From Alphaproteobacteria bacterium (GTDB lineage: Bacteria > Pseudomonadota > Alphaproteobacteria > UBA9219), in NCBI GenBank assembly GCA_028683655.1, contig JAQUHK010000001.1, positions 11,526 to 75,525 of the forward strand: a stretch of DNA of 64,000 nucleotides, written 5' to 3'. The position numbers and the translations under genes are program-made. The notes under the pieces were generated by a model, which did no database searches, was not told where the DNA came from, and saw only the letters and a program-made list of their open reading frames with translations. Shown here piece after piece: positions 2,278 through 64,000 of the stretch (its first letter is position 1; every line of letters begins with the position of its first letter).

Positions 2278-5200
2278 TTGACGAATCATGCGGGTATTCA
2301 TACCCATGCATTTGCTTGCCTGAAGCACACTCCTGTACAGAAGAAGGATCATCTTGTGCCTGTATTCCGTTTGAAGCCCTTTGTCTTTGTTGCCGTTTTG
2401 GTTATTGCGGCAATGTCTCTTCCTCTTACGGTCGCTGCGGGGACATGGAGCGGGCAGAAATCGGCTTATCAGTTGATTTTGGACAAGCTGGGCAAGGCTG
2501 ATCCCAAAAGCATGAATCTGGAGCAGGCACAGGCGTTTATCGAAGACCTTAAATCCCTTGCGCAAACGGAAGCGCTTCTTCCTTCGTCCATCTATGGCAA
2601 CAGCGCGACGGGGGCGAGTGGTCGCGAGGCGAGCGCGTGGGAAAAACGGGCGGCGTCGCAGGCTGTGGCGGTGGGGCAGACTCTGAGTGCGTCCAGCACG
2701 GCGGATGTGGCGGCGACGTTGGCGCAGAGCGGGCAGGCTTTGCTGCCGGACGGATCGGGCGCGGCACAGGGCTGGATGCAGGACAAGCTGCGCGGCGCGT
2801 TGGGGCAGACGGATAACAAGATGGCGGCGGGCGCGATCAATGGCGCGACCAGCGAGCTGGCAAGGGGCACCAGCAATCTGGCCAGCGGTTATGCCACGTC
2901 ACAGATCGGCCTGTCGGACGGCGTTGATGCCAGCAGCAGCCTGAACCAGATGGCGCTGCGCACGGGGCTTGAGGGCGCCAAGGGCGCGGCGGCGGCCAGC
3001 TCGGTCTATGCGTTGAGCCACATGGAGATGGACTATACCCTGTCGGGCAGCGGGATCGACGAGTACTTGGCCTTGATGGTGCAGCCGCTTTGGAACAACA
3101 ACGACCTGCATCACAATATCTTTATACAGGGTTCCTATTCCAACAAGGACGTGACCGACGCGTGGGCGGATACAAGCTCGCGCCGCGATACGGTGAACAC
3201 AGGTCTGGCGTACCGCTGGATCACGCCGGATGAACAGCATATGTTCGGGGTGAACAGCTTCTTTGACCACCAGTGGCCGTATCACCATAACCGCATGTCG
3301 CTGGGTCTGGATTACAAGAACAGCCTGTATGGCGTGGCGTTCAACAAGTACTTCGGCCTGTCCGATTGGCGCGGACGGGTTGACGTGTATGAAGAAAAGG
3401 CTCTGGGTGGCGAAGACCTTGAGTTCTCGGGTCGGTTGAGACAGGCCCCTGAGCTTGAGCTGTTCGTGAAGGGCTATCACTGGGCCCAGGAAGCGACGGC
3501 GGTAGTGAACCCCGACGGGGACGACATCTGGGGCTATGAGCTGGCGGCAGAATACGCGCCGATCAACGCCTTCTCGGTGCGTAGCGCGATCAGCAAGGAT
3601 AACGAGATGGACCGCGCGGCGGGCGAGATCACGCTGCGGCTGAACTATGCGTTTGGGCAAGGCTGGGATGATTTGTGGAGTCGACCCCATTATGACCTGA
3701 GTTCGGTGGTGTCGCGGCGGTTTGAGAAAGTGCGGCGCACGAACGAGATACGGGTGCAGACGCGCCAGAACCTGAGCGTGACGGCGCGGGTGACCTATGC
3801 GCAAGGCGCGAATGTGAGCGTGGGGCAAAGCTTGGCCTTTGGCACGACGATAACGACCAGCAGCGCAGCTGGCAATGCCGCAACGGTTCTGTTCGGCAGC
3901 GGGGCGCGGCTTGATATGGGGCAAAGCACCTCGGTCCGGCTTGAGAAGGACAAGGTGGTCTTGATATCCGGCCTTATGCAGTACACGAGCGGCACAGGCG
4001 GGATCACGACGATTACGGTGCCCAACGGCACGATCAACCTGCTGGGCACGGACGTAGATGTGCGCGTGTCGGGCAGCACGACAACCCTGCGCGTCCGCGA
4101 CGGCGCAGCGAACTTCAAGGATGAAAGCGGTACGACCCGCGTGGATAAGGAAGAGCTGGCGGAAAGCCAGCCCAATGACAGCGCCGCGCCACAAATCCGC
4201 GCATCGAGCACGTCGATTTACGAGACGCATGCGAGCGAAGCGCACGAACAGCTTGACCTTGTGGGCCCAACCCCGACGAGCGCAAAGGCCGCGCCCTATG
4301 CGAAGGCAGATGTGAGCGTGAGCGGCACGATGTCTGTGGGACAGACCCTGACCTTTACGGTGCCGCTGAGCGCAGCGGTGAATGTAAGCGGTTCGCCGCA
4401 ACTGGCCTTTACGCTGGGCGGGCAAGACCGGCTGGCGGACTATGCAAGCGGCAGCGGGACGACGAGCCTGATCTTCACCTATACGGTTGTGAGCGCGGAT
4501 GAAACCCTGTCCACGATCATCGCACAAGAAGTCCAGAAGAACGGCGGCAGCTTAACAGGCAGCAACGGTGCTCCCATGGTGTTGACCGTCTCTGGTACCT
4601 CGACCGGCACCGTGCCCGATCTGGTAGCCCCCACGATTACGGCCCTGACGGCGGTAACGAGCGGCAGCACACCGGCAGGCACCAACGACGTGATCACTTT
4701 TACGCTGGATGCGAGTGAAACGCTGGTCAAGAGCGGCAACCCGACCCTGACCTTAGACATTGGCGGTGTAACCCGCACGGCGACGTTCGCAAGCATCACA
4801 TCGGGCAATGCGATCTTCACCTATACGGTGCAGGCTGGCGACAGCGACACGGACGGGATCACGGTGACGGCGCTCAACATAGCCGCCACTGAGCTGACGG
4901 ACGGATCTGGCAATGATCTGGATACAACGCTGACCCTGCCGCAAAATATGAGCATCACGATCACAACATTGATGGGCCTGTCAACTTGCCCCAGCGGCGA
5001 CCTGTCGGCCCCGACGAACGCGGGCTGTGCCAGATTGTTCGGCAGCGACCCGACGAGCCTGAACGACGTGATGGTGTACGCGGGCGACGTTCCGGGCACA
5101 ACGACGGACTTCTTCGTCCGGCGTTGTGACCTCGGCATGACATGGAGCACCGCGACCTCGTCCTGCACCGGCACGCGCAGCACGATGCAGTGGAAGGACA

Positions 5201-9004: not shown

Positions 9005-9654
9005 TATTTACCCCGTCTTTTGGCGGGTGTGTCTGCCTTCGACCAGAAAAGCTCAAACTCTTGAACATAACGCTCGGTCAAAAACTTTGAATGGATCGTG
9101 ATGAACTCTTTTTTGTGGCTCGACTCGTTGAGCGACATGACGAGATAATCATCATAAATGTAATAGGGCGCCATGACCGCATAGGCCTTATCGAGAGTGC
9201 GATACTCACAGTAAGCAAGGGGTAAGTTAACCTCACCCTTAATGGCCAAGACTTGTGCATCAAGCCCATCAATCTCGCCCATGCGCTGTGTGTGTTCGCT
9301 GACAAAATTATCGGCATAAGGCAAATAGCGTTCGTCACCAAAGTTAAACTGGCGAATACGTCCACCGTCTTTGAGTGTTTCATAAATGTGATCGAGAAGT
9401 TGGCGATAGCCCGCTTTGCCGGAATAGATACGCATATTCTGCTTGCGTATCTTCACGCCTTCATCTTCCAGAAACTCTACGCCGTGCTTGTCAAAAGCAG
9501 CAAGGATGCGGGTTAGTGTTTTTTCTTGGGGCTGCACAAGATCGGATTCAATCTTGCTAATCGTCACACGCGTGGTGCCTGCCTTTTTGGCAAGGTCTTC
9601 GGCCTTCCACTCTAACAGGCCTCGCGCTGCGCGTATTTGACGTCCTGTAATCAT
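9004..9654 (-). CDS. XRE-family helix-turn-helix transcriptional regulator with C-terminal domain of unknown function
   Basis: N-terminal HTH (QIRAARGLLEWKAEDLAKKAGTTRVTISKIES). About 150 aa of unassigned C-terminal sequence. Confidence 0.6.
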   Translation of the reverse strand: MITGRQIRAARGLLEWKAEDLAKKAGTTRVTISKIESDLVQPQEKTLTRILAAFDKHGVEFLEDEGVKIRKQNMRIYSGKAGYRQLLDHIYETLKDGGRIRQFNFGDERYLPYADNFVSEHTQRMGEIDGLDAQVLAIKGEVNLPLAYCEYRTLDKAYAVMAPYYIYDDYLVMSLNESSHKKEFITIHSKFLTERYVQEFELFWSKADTPAKRRGK

Positions 9655-9722: not shown

Positions 9723-10640
9723 TCAACTGGGGGCTGGGACGGGCAAAACAGGCTGTTTGGCTTTCATAAACTCGACCGCCCGCGTGGCATGGGCGGCGGC
9801 GGTGAAGATCAGTTTCTTGTCGCTTTTAAGGGCTTTGAGCCAATGGTCGATATAGGCGGCATGATCCTCGCGGATTTCTGGCGTGATGCCTAAATCCGCG
9901 CAAAGGAAGGCCGCGCCAATCTCGGCAACAAGCTCTTCCTTGGCATAGCCTTCATCACCCCACACGACACGACCAAAGTCGCGGTCAAGGCGGCTCTTGT
10001 GTTTTGTCCAGTGCGTTGTCTCATGGGCAAGCGTGGCGTAATAACTTTCTGCGTCTTTGAAAGCATCGAAGGACGGCATCTGGATATGATCGCTGCCTTC
10101 TGCGTAATAGGCCCTGCCGCCGCCATGCCGGATGACGACTCCCGTATTCATCATAAAATCATCGACGGATACAAGGCGTTCGATAAGGGACGTTTCAGGC
10201 AAAGCCTCTGGGCGAATAAGGAACCGCTCCGGCAAGCCTTCAATCTGTTCGACATTGAACACATTGTACCCGCGCATAAAGGGAATATGTCGCTCGACAT
10301 CCGCGCCCGTCATGGAGTCGGCCTCAAGCTTTGTAATCTTGTCGGCATAAACGATAAAGGAAGATTTCTCACCCTTGCGGACATGCGCCCCATAGACTTC
10401 AGCTTGTTTGAAGGTCATCCAAGTCGGGTTCTGATAACCGCCGCGTAAGGCAGCATCCCATAGGAGTAAAACATTCACGCCGTTATAGGCCTCGCCATTA
10501 TGGCGCAAGGGGCGCATGATACGGCTTGCGGTACTGTCGCCGCTCCAAGGTTTTTGCCAAGGGCGCACCCCTTGCTCAAGATCAGCAATAATCTTTTGCG
10601 TCACACGATCATAGACGTTGAGTTTGGTCGGTTCTGTCAT
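9723..10640 (-). CDS. ardC: ArdC-like antirestriction protein (N-terminal ssDNA-binding DUF1738 domain + C-terminal zincin-like metallopeptidase domain)
   Basis: N-terminus NVYDRVTQKIIADLEQGVRPWQKPW...NGVNVLLLW matches the ArdC N-domain. C-terminal HExxH (LAHETTHWTKH). Confidence 0.8.
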   Translation of the reverse strand: MTEPTKLNVYDRVTQKIIADLEQGVRPWQKPWSGDSTASRIMRPLRHNGEAYNGVNVLLLWDAALRGGYQNPTWMTFKQAEVYGAHVRKGEKSSFIVYADKITKLEADSMTGADVERHIPFMRGYNVFNVEQIEGLPERFLIRPEALPETSLIERLVSVDDFMMNTGVVIRHGGGRAYYAEGSDHIQMPSFDAFKDAESYYATLAHETTHWTKHKSRLDRDFGRVVWGDEGYAKEELVAEIGAAFLCADLGITPEIREDHAAYIDHWLKALKSDKKLIFTAAAHATRAVEFMKAKQPVLPVPAPS

Positions 10641-10738
10641 GCGCTGTCTCCTTTGCTTATGTTAAAAACCCACGCACTCGGACAAGCGCATGGCATTACG
10701 GGCTTTGGGCCTGTAATTTCTGGTGATGATTTGTGCTG

Positions 10739-14810: not shown

Positions 14811-15516
14811 GTGGCGTGCGCCTCCGCGCGTTCGAACCCGCAGGGTTCGACAAAACGCTTGGTGAGGGCACACCGCAGCCTCCAGCTCGTGAATGAGCCG
14901 CGTCTTCAACAAGGACCCCTTTTTATTGCGGGGTATTTTTGCTGGGGTGATGGAAACTTTCCTGATTTTAGTCTCGCGTGAAAGATGTTTTAGAATATCG
15001 TTATATATCAACAGGTTGGTGGGTGGTCTCGATTTTGAGAAAGCTGTTATACATCAACGACTTAGCCTAAAAAGACTCCCGAACAGACCCGTGAGCGTAC
15101 CAAATGAGGGCTCAGCTCGCTCTCAGAGCCCTTTTTTGTCTCGGTTCGTTGATTCTAAAGGGTTTTTTCTGAATCGAAGAGGCGGCCTTCTGTACCCCGT
15201 TTTTTGAGGGGGCGAGAGGCTTAGAGCCTGTTTACAAAGTGACATCGGATTCGAAAAACAGGGTCATTCCGGCACAGGGCGACAAAACGTATACGTTTTG
15301 CGCGGAGGGCCGTAAGGCCCGAAGTCCGAGGCTTGCCGAGGATACAAACAGGCAAAAAGCCTGTTTGTACAAATCCAGCGGCACGCCCCGCATCAAGTGC
15401 GGGGCAGGCTAGCGGACCAAAAGAGTCTTATGCGCGGCAGACGCCGCGCCACTGGACTCCGGCTTTCGCCGGAGTGACGCAGTTAGGGATAATGTCACAA
15501 GATTGTAAACAGGCTC

Positions 15517-20715: not shown

Positions 20716-21209
20716 GGCGCGTTGGGTTCGAAGAGGGGGCTGGGCTAGCGGCTCGCCCGCCTTTTCTGCCTTCGGTTTCTGCCTCGTTTTTGATTTGGAA
20801 AAAGTCATTTAGAATCAACGAATCAAGGCTAAAAAGGGCTCTGTGACGCACGGGAGGGCGTCTTGGGTACGCTCGAGGGGCTGTTCGGGAGTCTTTTTGG
20901 CCTAACCCATTGATCTGTAACAGCTTTCTTGAAATCGAGAGTAACGGGCAACCCCTTGATCTAAAACGATTTCTTCAAATCACCTTTTACGGAGAGATAA
21001 AATCGACGAAGTTGGCGTCCAGCGTCTTCCGCTCCTTTCCCCCTTCTGATTTTGGTGCTGATGGAACCTGCCTCGAAACAAAGCGAGTCGTAACGGCAAC
21101 ACTTTGTGAAATGGTTAGCAAAGCGTTAATCAAACGGTTGCGGCGTGAATCCCTGACTCTTACGCTGGCCATGGTGATTCGTTTTCGGTTACGGTCGGTT
21201 TCGGGGATT

Positions 21210-43685: not shown

Positions 43686-44720
43686 CTAAGGACAGGCACT
43701 TGTAGGCATGCACTGGCTAAATGCAGGCTTGATTGTGCCAACTTGACTTCCTGGTGAGCAATAATAGAGCATACAGCCAGTCTGCCCATTTGAGGTTACG
43801 CATGGTTCCGTCCATGACGTGTTGGCCGCATGAAGGGTTGTTCCGGCAACACAGTCGCCATAGTTCACGGTTTGTGGTTGATCCGTCGCAGCGGCAGTCC
43901 CACTCGGGTAAAGTTCACCACTTAGGGAGTTGTTTTGTTCAAGAGAAGGTGTTTGTTGTGTTGATGTGGCTGGTGTGCAGACCGTAACACTTTCGGTGGC
44001 TTGCACAAGGGCTGAAGTAACAGACTGAATGGACATTCTGTATCGGCGAACAATATCCCACGCCTTTACCAACGTTGCTTTGGCTGTGTCGCACACACCA
44101 TCTCGAGCCTCCCCTTCAGCTTGGAGGGCGAGCTTGATCGCTTCTTCTTTTGCTAAACTAAGCGAAGGGTCCGTTTCCTTGCAATTTTCAACCATATCTG
44201 CAAGCTGCGTTTTTATTAATGAGATGGAGATATAACCATTCAGGTTATTAGCCTCAGCCTTGCCAATAAAACTATTGTATGCGGCTAGTCCTTCAGGACA
44301 CTCACCGTTTTTGAAATGCGCCTGACTCGTCAAAGCAAGATTCATAGCAAGAGTCAACGGCGTGTCTTCTCTTCCAAGTAATTTGTTGGCATAGGATGAG
44401 ACACCAGTAAGACCAGAAACACCACGGCATTGGGCAATAGATCTCGCCGCCGCTTCCACTTGTATATTTTCAACGCTATTTTGCGTAACAAAAGCGGATA
44501 ATTTGTTAAAATAGCGCTCGGCCTCGTCACATGCTTTTCTAGATGACGCTAGAATAACCTGATTCAACAGCATGTCTGCTTTGCGGCGATTGTTCATCTG
44601 TGTGATAGTGGTATTTTCAGCAGCCCAACTCGCTGGAGAGCACGTTACAGACAAAGCAATAAGCGTCAAAAGGAGCACGGTGTTTCGCGATGGTATTTTT
44701 CTGTATGTGGAGCAGGGCAT
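43686..44720 (-). CDS. secreted hypothetical protein (344 aa)
   Basis: Signal peptide. Helical and Cys-containing. No family recognised. Confidence 0.45.
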   Translation of the reverse strand: MPCSTYRKIPSRNTVLLLTLIALSVTCSPASWAAENTTITQMNNRRKADMLLNQVILASSRKACDEAERYFNKLSAFVTQNSVENIQVEAAARSIAQCRGVSGLTGVSSYANKLLGREDTPLTLAMNLALTSQAHFKNGECPEGLAAYNSFIGKAEANNLNGYISISLIKTQLADMVENCKETDPSLSLAKEEAIKLALQAEGEARDGVCDTAKATLVKAWDIVRRYRMSIQSVTSALVQATESVTVCTPATSTQQTPSLEQNNSLSGELYPSGTAAATDQPQTVNYGDCVAGTTLHAANTSWTEPCVTSNGQTGCMLYYCSPGSQVGTIKPAFSQCMPTSACP

Positions 44721-44911
44721 ATCATCCTCAAGTGTTAATCGGTTAGAATTATTAGGATAGGAGGAAGGTTACAAAGATAATGTAAGGGTTCTCCATGTCT
44801 TCCCTGGAAGAGCATTATGGATGACGTAACTTGCGGAAGTATTAATTTGTTTTCTGATTCAGAGCTTAATATTTTCTTAAGCTGGGTAATAGAAAATAAG
44901 TTGTCGTATTT

Positions 44912-45454
44912 ATGGAGGGTATATCTATGTTAACGAAATGTCGTGCCATTTCTTTTTCTTTGGTTTTTGCGGTGCTGTTCTCAAGTCCTTCGCAAGCTGC
45001 GGTTGATCAGGGTACCTTTTGTTCTCCATCAGAACCACTGAATGGGGCTTATTGTTTGAACCAGACATGTTCCCCTGCACAGCTTGGGGCATCAATGTTA
45101 GACAAAGACATGCAGAACGTCGTTGTTTGTCTGAAGGATGCATCGTCGGGGCGAAATATCTGGAAAGCCATGAATGGCACGGCGGTAACGCAGTCCGTTG
45201 GTGGCGGTGGCGCGGTTATTACACTGTATAATACGGCGGCGTGTCCTGCTGGCTGGACTCCTGTGTTTTCGGGACAGGCTTACGCGGGGGTTGTAAGTGC
45301 GGGTGTGACGGGCACTGCGGCGACGGATGTTTTCTGTGCCCCCGCGTCGCTGGGAACATCGGGCGTGGCTAATGTGGGGGTTAACCTTAAGAGTGTTTAT
45401 TATGATGTTGGGGGTAGCGACGTAACAATGAGTTGTATCATGTGTTCTAAATAG
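44912..45454 (+). CDS. secreted Cys-rich hypothetical protein
   Basis: Signal peptide. Ten Cys residues. Gly/Ala/Thr-rich. Confidence 0.45.
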   Translation: MEGISMLTKCRAISFSLVFAVLFSSPSQAAVDQGTFCSPSEPLNGAYCLNQTCSPAQLGASMLDKDMQNVVVCLKDASSGRNIWKAMNGTAVTQSVGGGGAVITLYNTAACPAGWTPVFSGQAYAGVVSAGVTGTAATDVFCAPASLGTSGVANVGVNLKSVYYDVGGSDVTMSCIMCSK

Positions 45455-54076: not shown

Positions 54077-54248
54077 TTCTCCCCCCTGGCGGGGGAGAAA
54101 GCAAAATCTTAGGCTTACGAAGTAAGTCTTAGATTTTGCAAGAGTGGGGGTAAGACCCAGCGGCCTCTTTTACCCCCTCACCAGCAAAATCTAAGACTTG
54201 CCAAGCGGCAAGCCTAAGATTTTGCAACCTCTCCCGCAGGGGGAGAGG
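54077..54248. repeat. array of five imperfect palindromic elements (REP/MITE-like)
   Basis: TTCTCCCCCCTGGCGGGGGAGAA. Two copies of a ~40-bp hairpin built on GCAAAATCT(T/A)AG(G/A)CTT. CCTCTCCCGCAGGGGGAGAGG. Confidence 0.6.
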
Positions 54249-60538: not shown

Positions 60539-60564
60539 GCTCTGGGGACTGTCTCCAAAGAAAA

Positions 60565-60590
60565 GGGAGCCGAAAGGCTCCCTTTTTTGT
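60565..60590 (+). terminator. rho-independent terminator after rpsI (GGGAGCC-GAAA-GGCTCCC + T6)
   Basis: Perfect stem followed by a T-run. Confidence 0.65.
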
Positions 60591-60608
60591 TGCGCGAAGA
60601 AAAGACCT

Positions 60609-61097
60609 TTATCCCTTTGTATAAGCCTTCGCCGCGACCGTCGCCAGTCCTGACAAATCGCCGGGACGATAGGGTGTTTCCGTTGGAACTGTCGTTGGTT
60701 CGCCGGCAGGCGTTGAAGAAAGTTTGTTGTAAAGAACATGGGGTTGTTTGATAAAAAAGGGAAGCCCTAGCCCCGAAAAGGAAAAAACTGGTAAAGGCAT
60801 GGACCAAATTGGATCTACTTTTCGTTCATGCAGTTCAATTTCATCAGAAGGACGCATCATTATCTGGGAGAAAGGAGGCTTTTCACCAGAGGTATGCTCC
60901 ATTGCTTTTCTTACTGCGTCGAAGGCTGATGTCCCTTTTACAGCCATATCGTAATGAACCGTTTTTCCATTGACCGTTGCTGTGCAGTAATCTGCGCCAA
61001 GTCTTGAGTGAGTAGGGCGATTGCTCATAAGGAGTATTGTGTAAGGTTTGCTCATCTCTTTAATATCAGATGAAGTAACAAATGTAGTTTCTTTCAT
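60609..61097 (-). CDS. hypothetical protein in low-GC insertion
   Basis: ORF in an AT-richer segment. Confidence 0.35.
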   Translation of the reverse strand: MKETTFVTSSDIKEMSKPYTILLMSNRPTHSRLGADYCTATVNGKTVHYDMAVKGTSAFDAVRKAMEHTSGEKPPFSQIMMRPSDEIELHERKVDPIWSMPLPVFSFSGLGLPFFIKQPHVLYNKLSSTPAGEPTTVPTETPYRPGDLSGLATVAAKAYTKG

Positions 61098-61196
61098 GAA
61101 AACTCTCCTTAAAATGGCAGTGTCCTAATAGCTTGCGTTCATTTTATCATAAAAAAAGCATGAAAGCATTTTTTTGCGAAAGTTAAGTTTGTGCCT

Positions 61197-61532
61197 TTAA
61201 ATTCCCAAAACGCCAAGGGTATGCCGGAAAGCGCGTGGCGGCGGGGCGTTATTAAGGGCAGGGTTAAGGCCGATGGAGTGAATGGCTTTGCTTTGTGGGA
61301 GCGAAATGACGGTAAAGCTACCTTTTACCTCGTTGATTTTCTCTAAGAGCCCCATATTTGTTTTATCCTCAATCCAGAGGTCAAAAGGAACTTCCTTGCC
61401 TTCTATGATGGCCATATGCGTCGGTAGCTCTGTAGAGTCTGCGGGGCGGTTCTTTAAAAGAAAGGCATGAAAAGGCGTGGTGATAGGGGATATCCCCAGT
61501 TCTTCAATGTAACGTGTCATCATAATCTCCAA
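61197..61532 (-). CDS. hypothetical protein in low-GC insertion
   Basis: ORF only. Confidence 0.35.
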   Translation of the reverse strand: MEIMMTRYIEELGISPITTPFHAFLLKNRPADSTELPTHMAIIEGKEVPFDLWIEDKTNMGLLEKINEVKGSFTVISLPQSKAIHSIGLNPALNNAPPPRAFRHTLGVLGI

Positions 61533-61586
61533 AATAAAAAGGCCCCTTCTTATAACACAAAAACCCTCAAAAGAGGCCTTTTGAAA

Positions 61587-61612
61587 GTAAAAAAGGGAGC
61601 CCGAAGGCTCCC
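61587..61612 (-). terminator. rho-independent terminator (GGGAGCC-TTCG-GGCTCCC + T-run on minus strand)
   Basis: Hairpin with a downstream T-run in the minus orientation. Nearly the same hairpin as the rpsI terminator. Confidence 0.5.
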
Positions 61613-61645
61613 TTTAGGGGGATTTTGAAGGTTTTACGTGGCCCC

Positions 61646-61954
61646 TTACGCTGGTCTGTAATCAGCCCGCCGGATGCAGATGACGGTGCCTTGCGTGAGC
61701 TCAGGAAAGCGTTCGGTAGGGGGGACTTGTCCCTGAAAAGCAAAAGTTCTTGTCTTTGGTGGTTTTCTGCCATTCGCCATTGTGACTGTGGCGACATAGC
61801 AAGAGGAGGGCGAAGCCCCTTCGCCGGTAATCTCTTTTTTAACGCCTTCTCCCTTGCCTGCGCGGGTTGTCATTCGTGCTGTCATTGGTCCCCTCCCTGA
61901 TGCAAAGGTGAAAAAGCGTCCTACAAGATCAAGTGTGACCGATAACGAGCCCAA
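61646..61954 (-). CDS. hypothetical protein
   Basis: ORF only. Confidence 0.3.
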   Translation of the reverse strand: MGSLSVTLDLVGRFFTFASGRGPMTARMTTRAGKGEGVKKEITGEGASPSSCYVATVTMANGRKPPKTRTFAFQGQVPPTERFPELTQGTVICIRRADYRPA

Positions 61955-62115: not shown

Positions 62116-62706
62116 ATGACCAGTGAAACCGAGACCCTCGTACCCGAAACAGCTCAAGAAACCGCTCAGGCGACTGAAAACACGGCCGAAACCGAAAAAG
62201 ACGGGGCTGAAGACGCGCTAGAGCAGGCGCAAACCGAGATCGGCAAGCTGAAGGACCAGATTCTCCGCGCGATGGCTGAGACAGAAAATACCCGCCGCCG
62301 CATGAAGAAAGAAGTCGAAGACGCTCAAAAGTTCGCGCTGGGCTCTTTCGCGAAGGAGATGCTGGTCGTTGCCGACAATTTCCGCCGCGCGCTGGACGCC
62401 GTGCCCAAGGACGGCGCAGACGGCGATACGCTGAAGAACCTTGTCACCGGCGTCGAGGCGACCGAGCGCCAGCTTTTGGCCGCCTTCGAACGCTTCGGGA
62501 TCAAGAAAATAAGCCCCCTCGGCGAGGTCTTTGATCCGCATTATCATCAAGTGATGATGGAGATCGACGATCCCTCCAAACCCGCAGGTCAGATCGTTCA
62601 GGTCTTACAAGAAGGCTATATGATCCATGATCGCCTCCTGCGCGAAGCCATGGTCGCCGTCGCCAAAGGCGGTCCCACCGCCCACAAAGTCGATACGCAG
62701 GCGTAA
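62116..62706 (+). CDS. grpE: nucleotide exchange factor GrpE
   Basis: Coiled-coil N-terminus and GrpE C-terminal domain (..DPHYHQVMMEIDD..). Confidence 0.9.
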   Translation: MTSETETLVPETAQETAQATENTAETEKDGAEDALEQAQTEIGKLKDQILRAMAETENTRRRMKKEVEDAQKFALGSFAKEMLVVADNFRRALDAVPKDGADGDTLKNLVTGVEATERQLLAAFERFGIKKISPLGEVFDPHYHQVMMEIDDPSKPAGQIVQVLQEGYMIHDRLLREAMVAVAKGGPTAHKVDTQA

Positions 62707-62821: not shown

Positions 62822-62897
62822 GGGGCCATAGCTCAGCTGGGAGAGCGCAACAATGGCATTGTTGAGGTCAGGGGTTCGATCCCCCTTGGCTCCACCA
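62822..62897 (+). tRNA. tRNA-Ala (anticodon GGC)
   Basis: Cloverleaf folded by hand. G3:U70 Ala identity pair. Anticodon loop ATGGCAT. T-loop TTCGATC. 3' CCA encoded. Confidence 0.9.
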
Positions 62898-62913
62898 TCT
62901 ACCTTCCTAAAAT

Positions 62914-63022
62914 ATGTGGCTCTCCCCCAAAGGATGGGGCGGGGGTTGAGGTTATCATAGCGAGGCCTCCGGCAGGTGGCCACACAAAACAATGGCTCTC
63001 TCCCAAAGGATGGGGCGGGGGG
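62914..63022 (+). repeat. two direct copies of a ~30-bp G/C hairpin repeat (GGCTCTCCCCCAAAGGATGGGGCGGGGG) immediately 3' of tRNA-Ala
   Basis: Copies at about 62916..62945 and 62991..63022, separated by a ~45-bp spacer. Confidence 0.55.
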
Positions 63023-63040
63023 GAGAGACCTATAAATGAA

Positions 63041-63538
63041 TTATGTGCCAAAGCCTTTCTTCTCCAAGGAAGAATTCGATTGGGGCTGAGTTGTATTTCG
63101 GCTTGGCACCATCAGATTCAAAGTTTCTTGCGCGACTTTGTAGAGAAAAGTTTCTCGCGTGATCTCGTCTAACACGCTATCAGGAAATCTTCCGCTGCTG
63201 GGAACAAAGCCGTGCTTCTCAGTAGCCCTTAGGGTAAGCGAAGTTCTATCCCAACCAGCATATTGTTTTGCTTTTTCGACAGCGGCTTTTGCTGCCTCTG
63301 GGTCATCTTCATGCCAGCGTAAAGCAAGTTCTTTGAATGTATTGCGTAATGCTGGGGCATTTTCGCTGGAGTACAGGCGACGCGTAAGTTTATCAAACGT
63401 AGAACCTTTGTTGTTTTCAAACTCTTCGCGGAGATCGTTACAGAATGCAACTTGCTCTTGATCAATGAACAGCTTTGTCGGTTGGGCTTTATTCCGCCGA
63501 AATATATTTGGCAACCACATAATCAAACACTCCTTCAT
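63041..63538 (-). CDS. hypothetical protein (low-GC region downstream of tRNA-Ala)
   Basis: ORF of moderate quality in an AT-richer segment. Confidence 0.35.
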   Translation of the reverse strand: MKECLIMWLPNIFRRNKAQPTKLFIDQEQVAFCNDLREEFENNKGSTFDKLTRRLYSSENAPALRNTFKELALRWHEDDPEAAKAAVEKAKQYAGWDRTSLTLRATEKHGFVPSSGRFPDSVLDEITRETFLYKVAQETLNLMVPSRNTTQPQSNSSLEKKGFGT

Positions 63539-63788
63539 GCAACGAGTTATTTTCGGAGAAGGTTACCACAATTTTGAGTAACCTAATTACTTTCTCAAAC
63601 AGCCAATCGTTAAAATTTGTCGTTTGGCCCTCAATTTGGGGATCGAGTAGTACTTTGTCGTCGAGGCCAAAATAGCTTGAAAAGCTTCTGATTTCTTCAA
63701 TAATCGCACCCCATTTTATGAGTTTGATAAAGACATTGGGGGGCAATCTTTTTCCCCTTACGTCCACCATCACCCTTTCCAAAGACAT
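63489..63788 (-). CDS. hypothetical protein
   Basis: ORF only. Confidence 0.25.
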   Translation of the reverse strand: MSLERVMVDVRGKRLPPNVFIKLIKWGAIIEEIRSFSSYFGLDDKVLLDPQIEGQTTNFNDWLFEKVIRLLKIVVTFSENNSLHEGVFDYVVAKYISAE

Positions 63789-64000
63789 CCATTAACATCC
63801 AAAAGCGTTGGTTTGACGACGACATACTGACACCCAGGTCCATTACTGCCCATGAAAATCCATTGACGGCCACAGGTTCTTGGGGGGCGTGGGATACACT
63901 GACGACAGTGAAGTGGAGGTTGATGCAGCCATAGAGCTGGCCTGCTATCTGAAAACGAAAGAGCCACGATAGTCGAACACGGCTCTGTAGCTTCTAAGGA

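Follow-up and report, generated by a model that had tools for sequence, protein, structure and literature searches.

Results

Genes and features at the tRNA-Ala(GGC) locus

The only tRNA in the window, by which we mean the whole 64-kb (64,000-nucleotide) stretch of DNA analysed here, is a tRNA-Ala(GGC) close to its right end (Table 1), and ARAGORN and Rfam both agreed with the assignment made in an earlier sequence-only reading of this DNA. An Rfam scan of the locus returned the tRNA alone above threshold; a permuted tmRNA (26 bits) and Atu_C3 (27.7 bits) scored far under the gathering cut-offs and were rejected. The left neighbour of the tRNA is grpE, and the pairing of the two genes is kept in four other loci (L007, L010, L011 and L026). 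The GrpE protein of the window is 80-82% identical to those of Micavibrio-like MAGs, with a best match of 82% among the genome representatives searched.

Table 1. Features around tRNA-Ala(GGC), in window coordinates
Feature	Position	Strand	Description
grpE	62116..62706	+	PF01025 GrpE, found on the identical product; conserved left neighbour of tRNA-Ala(GGC)
tRNA-Ala(GGC)	62822-62897	+	ARAGORN; Rfam tRNA, 61.6 bits; elements integrate at its 3' end (attB/attL core)
Candidate relic repeat, left copy	62882..62911	+	last 16 nt of tRNA plus 14 nt of flank
Convergent intergenic spacer right of tRNA-Ala(GGC), up to ORF159			143 nt; holds the ~90-nt element and the second repeat head
Allele-specific segment	62898..62993		96 nt; the occupied allele instead contains an island (12 kb or more), the 49-nt repeat and a truncated head
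Full ~90-nt element	62909..63001	+	head, conserved body and start of next head; nhmmer 3-copy profile, E = 3.6e-28
Repeat head, copy 1	62917..62945	+	TGGCTCTC(C/T)CCCAAAGGATGGGGCGGGGG
Terminator-like stem-loop	62985..63030	-	arms 63021-63030 / 62994-63004; tail AUUGUUUUG at 62993-62985
Repeat head, copy 2	62993..63021	+	TGGCTCTC(C/T)CCCAAAGGATGGGGCGGGGG; common to the occupied allele
ORF159	63041..63520	-	small protein, helical in the predicted model, from an uncharacterised family that is very rare; AAGGAG before start
ORF99	63489..63788	-	doubtful or decaying ORF; gene callers give 93 or 99 aa
Candidate relic repeat, right copy	63754..63783	+	degenerate tRNA 3' end, candidate old attR; near the end of the low-GC tract
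Window-allele junction			tRNA directly joined to TCTACCTTCC
Occupied-allele junction			tRNA directly joined to GAAGGCAATTCG
Predicted precise-excision product of the island			tRNA, 49 nt, AGGCTCTACCCC

Two direct repeats about 45 bp apart had been described immediately 3' of the tRNA, and they proved to be 29-nt copies, here called heads, with one mismatch and 47 nt between them. Beyond them the GC content falls to 0.435 over the 0.74 kb of 63041-63783 and to 0.455 over 63001-64000, compared with 0.545 in the rest of the window, which agrees with the drop to roughly 40-45% from 63041 that the sequence-only reading had reported; computed quantitatively, the composition is not uniform. The low-GC tract does not reach the window end but stops near 63783-63830. 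GC content between 63784 and 64000 is 0.507, and in one of the metagenome contigs described below (L070) it rises to 0.55-0.6 within a few hundred bases past the tract. Further low-GC patches (0.43-0.47) were seen at 1-2000 and 44001-45000 of the window, the second of these at 0.434. Comparison with relatives, which the sequence-only reading had proposed as a check, showed that the low-GC DNA is absent from all 60 related grpE loci, where neither blastn nor tblastx found a match to the tail of the window. Queries with the ORF159 family, with the repeat and with the window tail likewise matched no phage, plasmid or viral contig.

As had been read from the letters, this DNA encodes only hypothetical minus-strand ORFs: ORF159 and ORF99 are its sole sizeable ORFs, and neither has a family in Pfam, PHROGs or PADLOC. 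A match of ORF159 to DUF6456 (13.8 bits) fell under the cut-off and was set aside. We found one 99% homologue of ORF159 among 5.8 billion proteins, and 1.84 billion representatives yielded six relatives, of which the nearest four are 60%, 42%, 51% and 33% identical and 157-197 aa long; the homologues lie on short contigs with uninformative neighbours. An AlphaFold2 single-sequence model of ORF159 is all helical (pLDDT 49). Because its relatives have conserved length, ORF159 is probably functioning, a live gene and not debris. ORF99 looks unconstrained, as each of the three nucleotide changes that separate it from the L070 allele is nonsynonymous.

Conspecific contigs carry an integrase island at the tRNA

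Two metagenome contigs with an identical GrpE (L001 and L002) match the window at 99.9%, and the match extends to 62897, the final tRNA base, and no further. The genes behind the tRNA in these contigs code for a P4-type tyrosine integrase (Arm-DNA-bind_3, Phage_int_M and Phage_integrase domains), an MBL-fold protein, a hypothetical protein and a patatin. Another four contigs, shorter and with the same GrpE, are broken off inside the tRNA, a pattern explained by the fact that assemblers break at branch points.

The other side of this allele was seen in contigs that carry ORF159. L067-L069 encode a 99%-identical ORF159, and the same locus was recovered again in L070, L072 and L077-L079. From 64000 back to 62994, at the start of repeat copy 2, these contigs are 99.2% identical to the window, and then they diverge. 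Leftward from ORF159 they hold one repeat head and an abutting truncated head, and then an imperfect copy of the tRNA end of 64-68 nt. This attR copy consists of ATCCCCCTTGGC(TCC)ACCA followed by 49 nt, matching the sequence 3' of the tRNA in L001; relative to the L001 tRNA side it lacks 3 nt at one place and 1 nt at another, and two positions are mismatched. The direct repeat of the population island is the last 19 nt of the tRNA plus 49 nt. The heads, at or near which the sequence-only reading had placed an attL, are not att sites.

Behind the attR copy lie genes for a DUF559/DUF2726 protein, an HTH protein, a hypothetical protein, AlpA, a DUF3631 protein split over two ORFs, a Tle1-like phospholipase and another MBL-like protein. 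The left and right halves of the island show no overlap; its size is at least 12 kb. Within the cargo (L001 10989-14910; L077 11861-19013), the two MBL-fold proteins have weak PADLOC matches (PDC-M48B, LmuA-like and RT-associated MBL). These proteins, the patatin and the Tle1-like phospholipase could serve in defence or predation.

Precise excision of the observed island would have left the 49-nt repeat segment behind; the window allele lacks this segment and is therefore not its product. One way to account for the missing segment is an imprecise deletion from the occupied allele, which would leave 62898-62993 as a scrap of the island interior; in the same direction, copies of the ~90-nt element on another metagenome contig, L074, sit among low-GC DUF5677/DUF5681 genes resembling mobile-element cargo. 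However, BLAST of 62898-62993 against the 12 kb of island seen found no similarity, L074 overlaps no island contig, and we consider such a deletion improbable.

The low-GC tract is not the start of a longer island

In the 99.2%-identical contigs, the DNA past ORF159 and ORF99 reaches a 183-aa hypothetical gene within 0.5 kb (GC 0.52-0.55) and then bactofilin, pfkB, alpha-2-macroglobulin, folC, accD, ybeY and corC (GC ~0.6); this context past 64000 is that of contigs carrying the other allele, not of the window strain. The sole distant homologue of the 183-aa gene lies in an unrelated tol/ruv context. In Azospirillum loci (L016-L042), the pfkB-bactofilin pair was seen 6-10 kb downstream of grpE and inverted relative to the arrangement inferred for the window lineage, which points to an old rearrangement whose breakpoint lay close to the tRNA.

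The sequence-only reading had taken the low-GC ORFs as the beginning of an intact island that starts at the tRNA, has its attL at or near the hairpin repeats and runs past the window to an integrase and an attR. The tRNA boundary, the GC drop, the ORFan genes and a tail without homologue in the 60 related loci all fit such an island, but other evidence speaks against it. No integrase was found among the ORFs of 62898-64000 by Pfam search, and none lies in the next 10 kb of the 99.2%-identical contigs, where the downstream integrase had been expected; in this population we saw one solely in L001/L002, which carry the other allele. Past 64000, contigs that share 99.2% identity with the window over 62994-64000 go on through the 183-aa gene, in DNA of normal GC content, to core genes, and the low-GC tract ends before the window does. 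Furthermore, the population island has as its att the 3' end of the tRNA with 49 nt added, not the hairpin repeat, and ORF159 and ORF99 are outside its attR. An intact island extending from this tRNA is thus close to refuted, and we assign it hardly any probability.

The grpE-tRNA-Ala(GGC) locus is a recurrent integration hotspot

Elements at this tRNA were also found outside the population. A second species (L011) has the identical tRNA and, directly behind it, an integrase that shares 69% identity with the one in L001; similar repeats of the GGGGTA type lie upstream of that integrase. In L007, the closest reference MAG (GrpE 80% identity), a large serine recombinase and a GpA terminase lie at the same tRNA, which indicates a prophage. 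The recombinase ORF of L007 (10630-12198, minus strand) overlaps tRNA-Ala(GGC) (10619-10694) by ~65 nt at its 3' end, with the GpA terminase next to it, and this arrangement suggests that the attP of the prophage lies within the end of its recombinase gene. In L010 and L026, ordinary genes follow the tRNA.

Since the population island, the 69%-identical L011 integrase and the L007 prophage are all at the same tRNA, the grpE-tRNA-Ala(GGC) locus is a true recurrent integration hotspot in this Micavibrio-like alphaproteobacterium. The tRNA-targeted island of the sequence-only reading was therefore correct as to the hotspot, with its breakpoint at 62897 and other elements at the same tRNA, but not as to its state, as the site in the window is not occupied by the population island. 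Nine islands have been described in Micavibrio aeruginosavorus ARL-13, of which four are flanked by tRNAs and seven have integrases (PMC3189940).

The occupied allele resembles tRNA-linked islands with P4-type integrases in that it is integrated at the tRNA 3' end with the integrase adjoining the tRNA, is bounded by direct repeats containing the tRNA 3' end and carries low-GC cargo. Compared with such islands its direct repeat is unusually long (64-68 nt, reaching 49 nt past the tRNA). Unlike them, the window has no integrase or mobility gene, and what is left is ~0.9 kb bounded by a 77%-identical repeat.

A degenerate tRNA end bounds the low-GC tract

The 30 nt at 62882-62911 recur in direct orientation 872 nt downstream, with 23 of 30 matches (Table 1). 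The next best match to this segment in 128 kb (both strands of the window) is 19/30; among 5000 dinucleotide shuffles of the tail none reached 23 matches and none went above 21. The right copy was picked out after the fact and falls within the first codons (5' end) of ORF99, and it is identical in the occupied allele. A second tRNA 3' end, which the sequence-only reading had expected downstream, outside the window, thus turned up inside it as a degenerate copy; the corresponding far-boundary repeat of the occupied allele is clear (64-68 nt). The tract that it bounds is atypical in composition and absent from relatives, although it is present in both alleles of the population.

From these observations we infer that the 23/30 repeat may be an old attR, and we favour, with moderate confidence, the interpretation that the window is a hotspot unoccupied by the population island that retains a ~0.9-kb relic of an older tRNA-targeted integration. 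An older element would have integrated at the 3' end of tRNA-Ala, and 62898-63783 would be its decayed remnant, the integrase having been lost. Later integrations, as in the other allele, would go in between the tRNA and the relic. Such insertion would be the usual tandem build-up at tRNA hotspots; in tRNA-linked islands, degenerate att copies pile up in tandem.

A different explanation is that the window holds a plain empty attB, that ORF159 and ORF99 are native lineage-specific orphans, and that the 23/30 repeat is unrelated to integration. ORF159, ORF99 and an unchanged 63754-63783 repeat are indeed common to both alleles, ORF159 belongs to a small real protein family of conserved length, and low GC content is found elsewhere in the window (0.459 over 60600-61850 and 0.434 over 44001-45000). 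This explanation does not readily accommodate a 30-nt direct repeat that includes the terminal 16 nt of the tRNA, reaches a score unmatched by shuffles and lies close to the point of GC recovery, nor a tail without likeness in relatives, and we regard it as unlikely, though less so than an imprecise deletion. The older-integration relic is the interpretation that we retain.

The repeat heads belong to a ~90-nt element

The heads next to the tRNA are parts of a longer, lineage-specific element of ~90 nt. A 20-nt core of the head has only two sites in 64 kb at up to 3 mismatches, and none of 100 shuffles gave any match; profile and core searches found no further full copy of the element in the 64-kb window. 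Among 241 million metagenome records the head 20-mer occurs in five stretches: two are the same locus, two are partial and unrelated, and one is L074, with two related, full elements at 587-689 and 2755-2849. The body between the heads (TTGAGG.TAGC..., GTGGCCACACAAAAC.ATGGCTCT) is conserved in L074. A CRISPR mini-array was considered and rejected, as there are only two repeats and the 47-nt 'spacer' is this conserved body. So far the element is known in full from two loci, once in the window and twice in L074; L074 was recovered from the sample that also yielded conspecific contigs, overlaps no island contig and may derive from the same genome.

The two alleles differ by a 76-nt unit between heads: the window has one full element and a head, the other allele two abutting heads, and the head spacing is 76 nt in the window and ~22 nt in L070. 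The elements are intergenic, and their orientation relative to neighbouring genes differs. A 16-nt inverted repeat (62913-62928 / 63019-63034) is 81% complementary, and no consistent target-site duplication was seen at the element. We infer that the ~90-nt element is, or once was, mobile.

Its closest, unproven analogy is to small REP/BIME- or MITE-like interspersed repeats, with three copies known. Like these, it is short, intergenic and GC-rich with a small internal palindrome, occurs at several loci and in either orientation, varies locally between strains in copy number and spacing, and has one copy that doubles as a terminator-like hairpin. Unlike them, it is known from three full copies only, which may not share one genome, its 16-nt terminal inverted repeat is imperfect (81%), it has no evident target-site duplication and no linked RAYT or transposase, and it folds no better than shuffles.

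L074 (1-6981 of contig Ga0209800_10000843) is itself a mosaic of low-GC genes (0.37-0.41; DUF5677 and two hypotheticals) and high-GC, repeat-rich spacers. The two ~90-nt element copies flank the DUF5677 gene, and a 120-nt inverted repeat (2565-2684 / 4529-4648, 78% complementary) and a 59-nt one (90%) flank the next gene. The arrangement resembles an array of cassettes or an invertible segment.

These features raise the possibility that the heads (29 nt) or the ~90-nt element are recombination sites of an undescribed gene-cassette system in Micavibrio-like predators, with the 76-nt unit as an empty cassette. Two direct-orientation elements in L074 bracket a single low-GC gene, low-GC genes there alternate with high-GC repeat-rich spacers, the head spacing differs between alleles (76 nt versus ~22 nt in L070), and the heads in the window lie between the tRNA hotspot and low-GC orphan genes. 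Nevertheless, slippage or recombination between repeats would explain the spacing variation equally, and the three known full copies come with no linked recombinase and no circular or alternative junctions seen. We therefore judge a cassette system highly improbable and keep the analogy to a small interspersed repeat.

A stem-loop behind ORF159 resembles a terminator

Each head had been described in the sequence-only reading as a hairpin of its own, but only copy 2, together with its 3' extension, stood out in the folds. The fold of head copy 1 (-13.5 kcal/mol, z = -0.6) does not improve on shuffles of C-run/G-run sequence of this kind. Head 2 together with its 3' extension GGAGAGACC forms, on the minus strand, a 10-bp stem of -15 kcal/mol (z = -2.41), and 1 of 200 shuffles was as good. 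A structured RNA spanning 62898-63045 was rejected, as the fold of this segment was no better than those of shuffles on either strand (z = -0.9 on plus and -0.55 on minus).

The hairpin lies 10 nt after the stop codon of ORF159 and plausibly terminates this gene. It resembles rho-independent terminators in having a GC-rich 10-bp stem at this distance from the stop codon, followed by a U-rich stretch and placed between convergent genes; it differs from them in its loop of 16 nt and its interrupted U-tract (AUUGUUUUG). A simple consensus terminator scan did not list the stem-loop at 62985-63030 because of the 16-nt loop.

Other variable blocks and dispersed repeats

The rpsI-grpE spacer (60540-61850, GC 0.459) is a second strain-variable low-GC block. 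Similarity to conspecific contigs stops at 60731 and resumes at 61852, and ORF162 (60609-61097, minus strand) shares only 47% identity with the 167-aa ORF that L001 has at this position. Copies of the terminator-like palindrome AAAAGGGAGCC..GGCTCCCTTTT bracket the block, one at 60561-60588 and the other at 61589-61615.

In addition, a dispersed repeat of ~200 nt was found in the window at 14985-15180 (plus strand) and 20781-20972 (minus strand) and in L001 at 9154-9380. The copies are 73-78% identical, share the invariant blocks AAAAAGACTCCCGAACAG, AGCGTACC, CAGAGCCCTTTTT and TCGTTGATTCTAAA, and match no Rfam family; they may represent a family of small-RNA genes or a further interspersed element. 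A short repeat of 31-78 nt (95-100% identical) occurs at 54078-54155 of the window, in the polysaccharide-gene region, and at 353-429 and 4689-4719 of L072, where its two sites are intergenic, near ybeY and folC on the far side of the hotspot.

Discussion

Our analysis gives base-level breakpoints for one hotspot, the tRNA-Ala(GGC) beside grpE, of a Micavibrio-like lineage that is uncultured. Across strains and species, this tRNA serves at least three different elements, and what is probably an older relic lies behind it. The locus is also a reminder that GC content can fall behind a tRNA where no live island is present, and that conspicuous repeats beside a tRNA may be something other than att sites. 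Hotspots of this kind are well known and the findings introduce no new principle; they help in the annotation of islands and of strain variation in predatory alphaproteobacteria.
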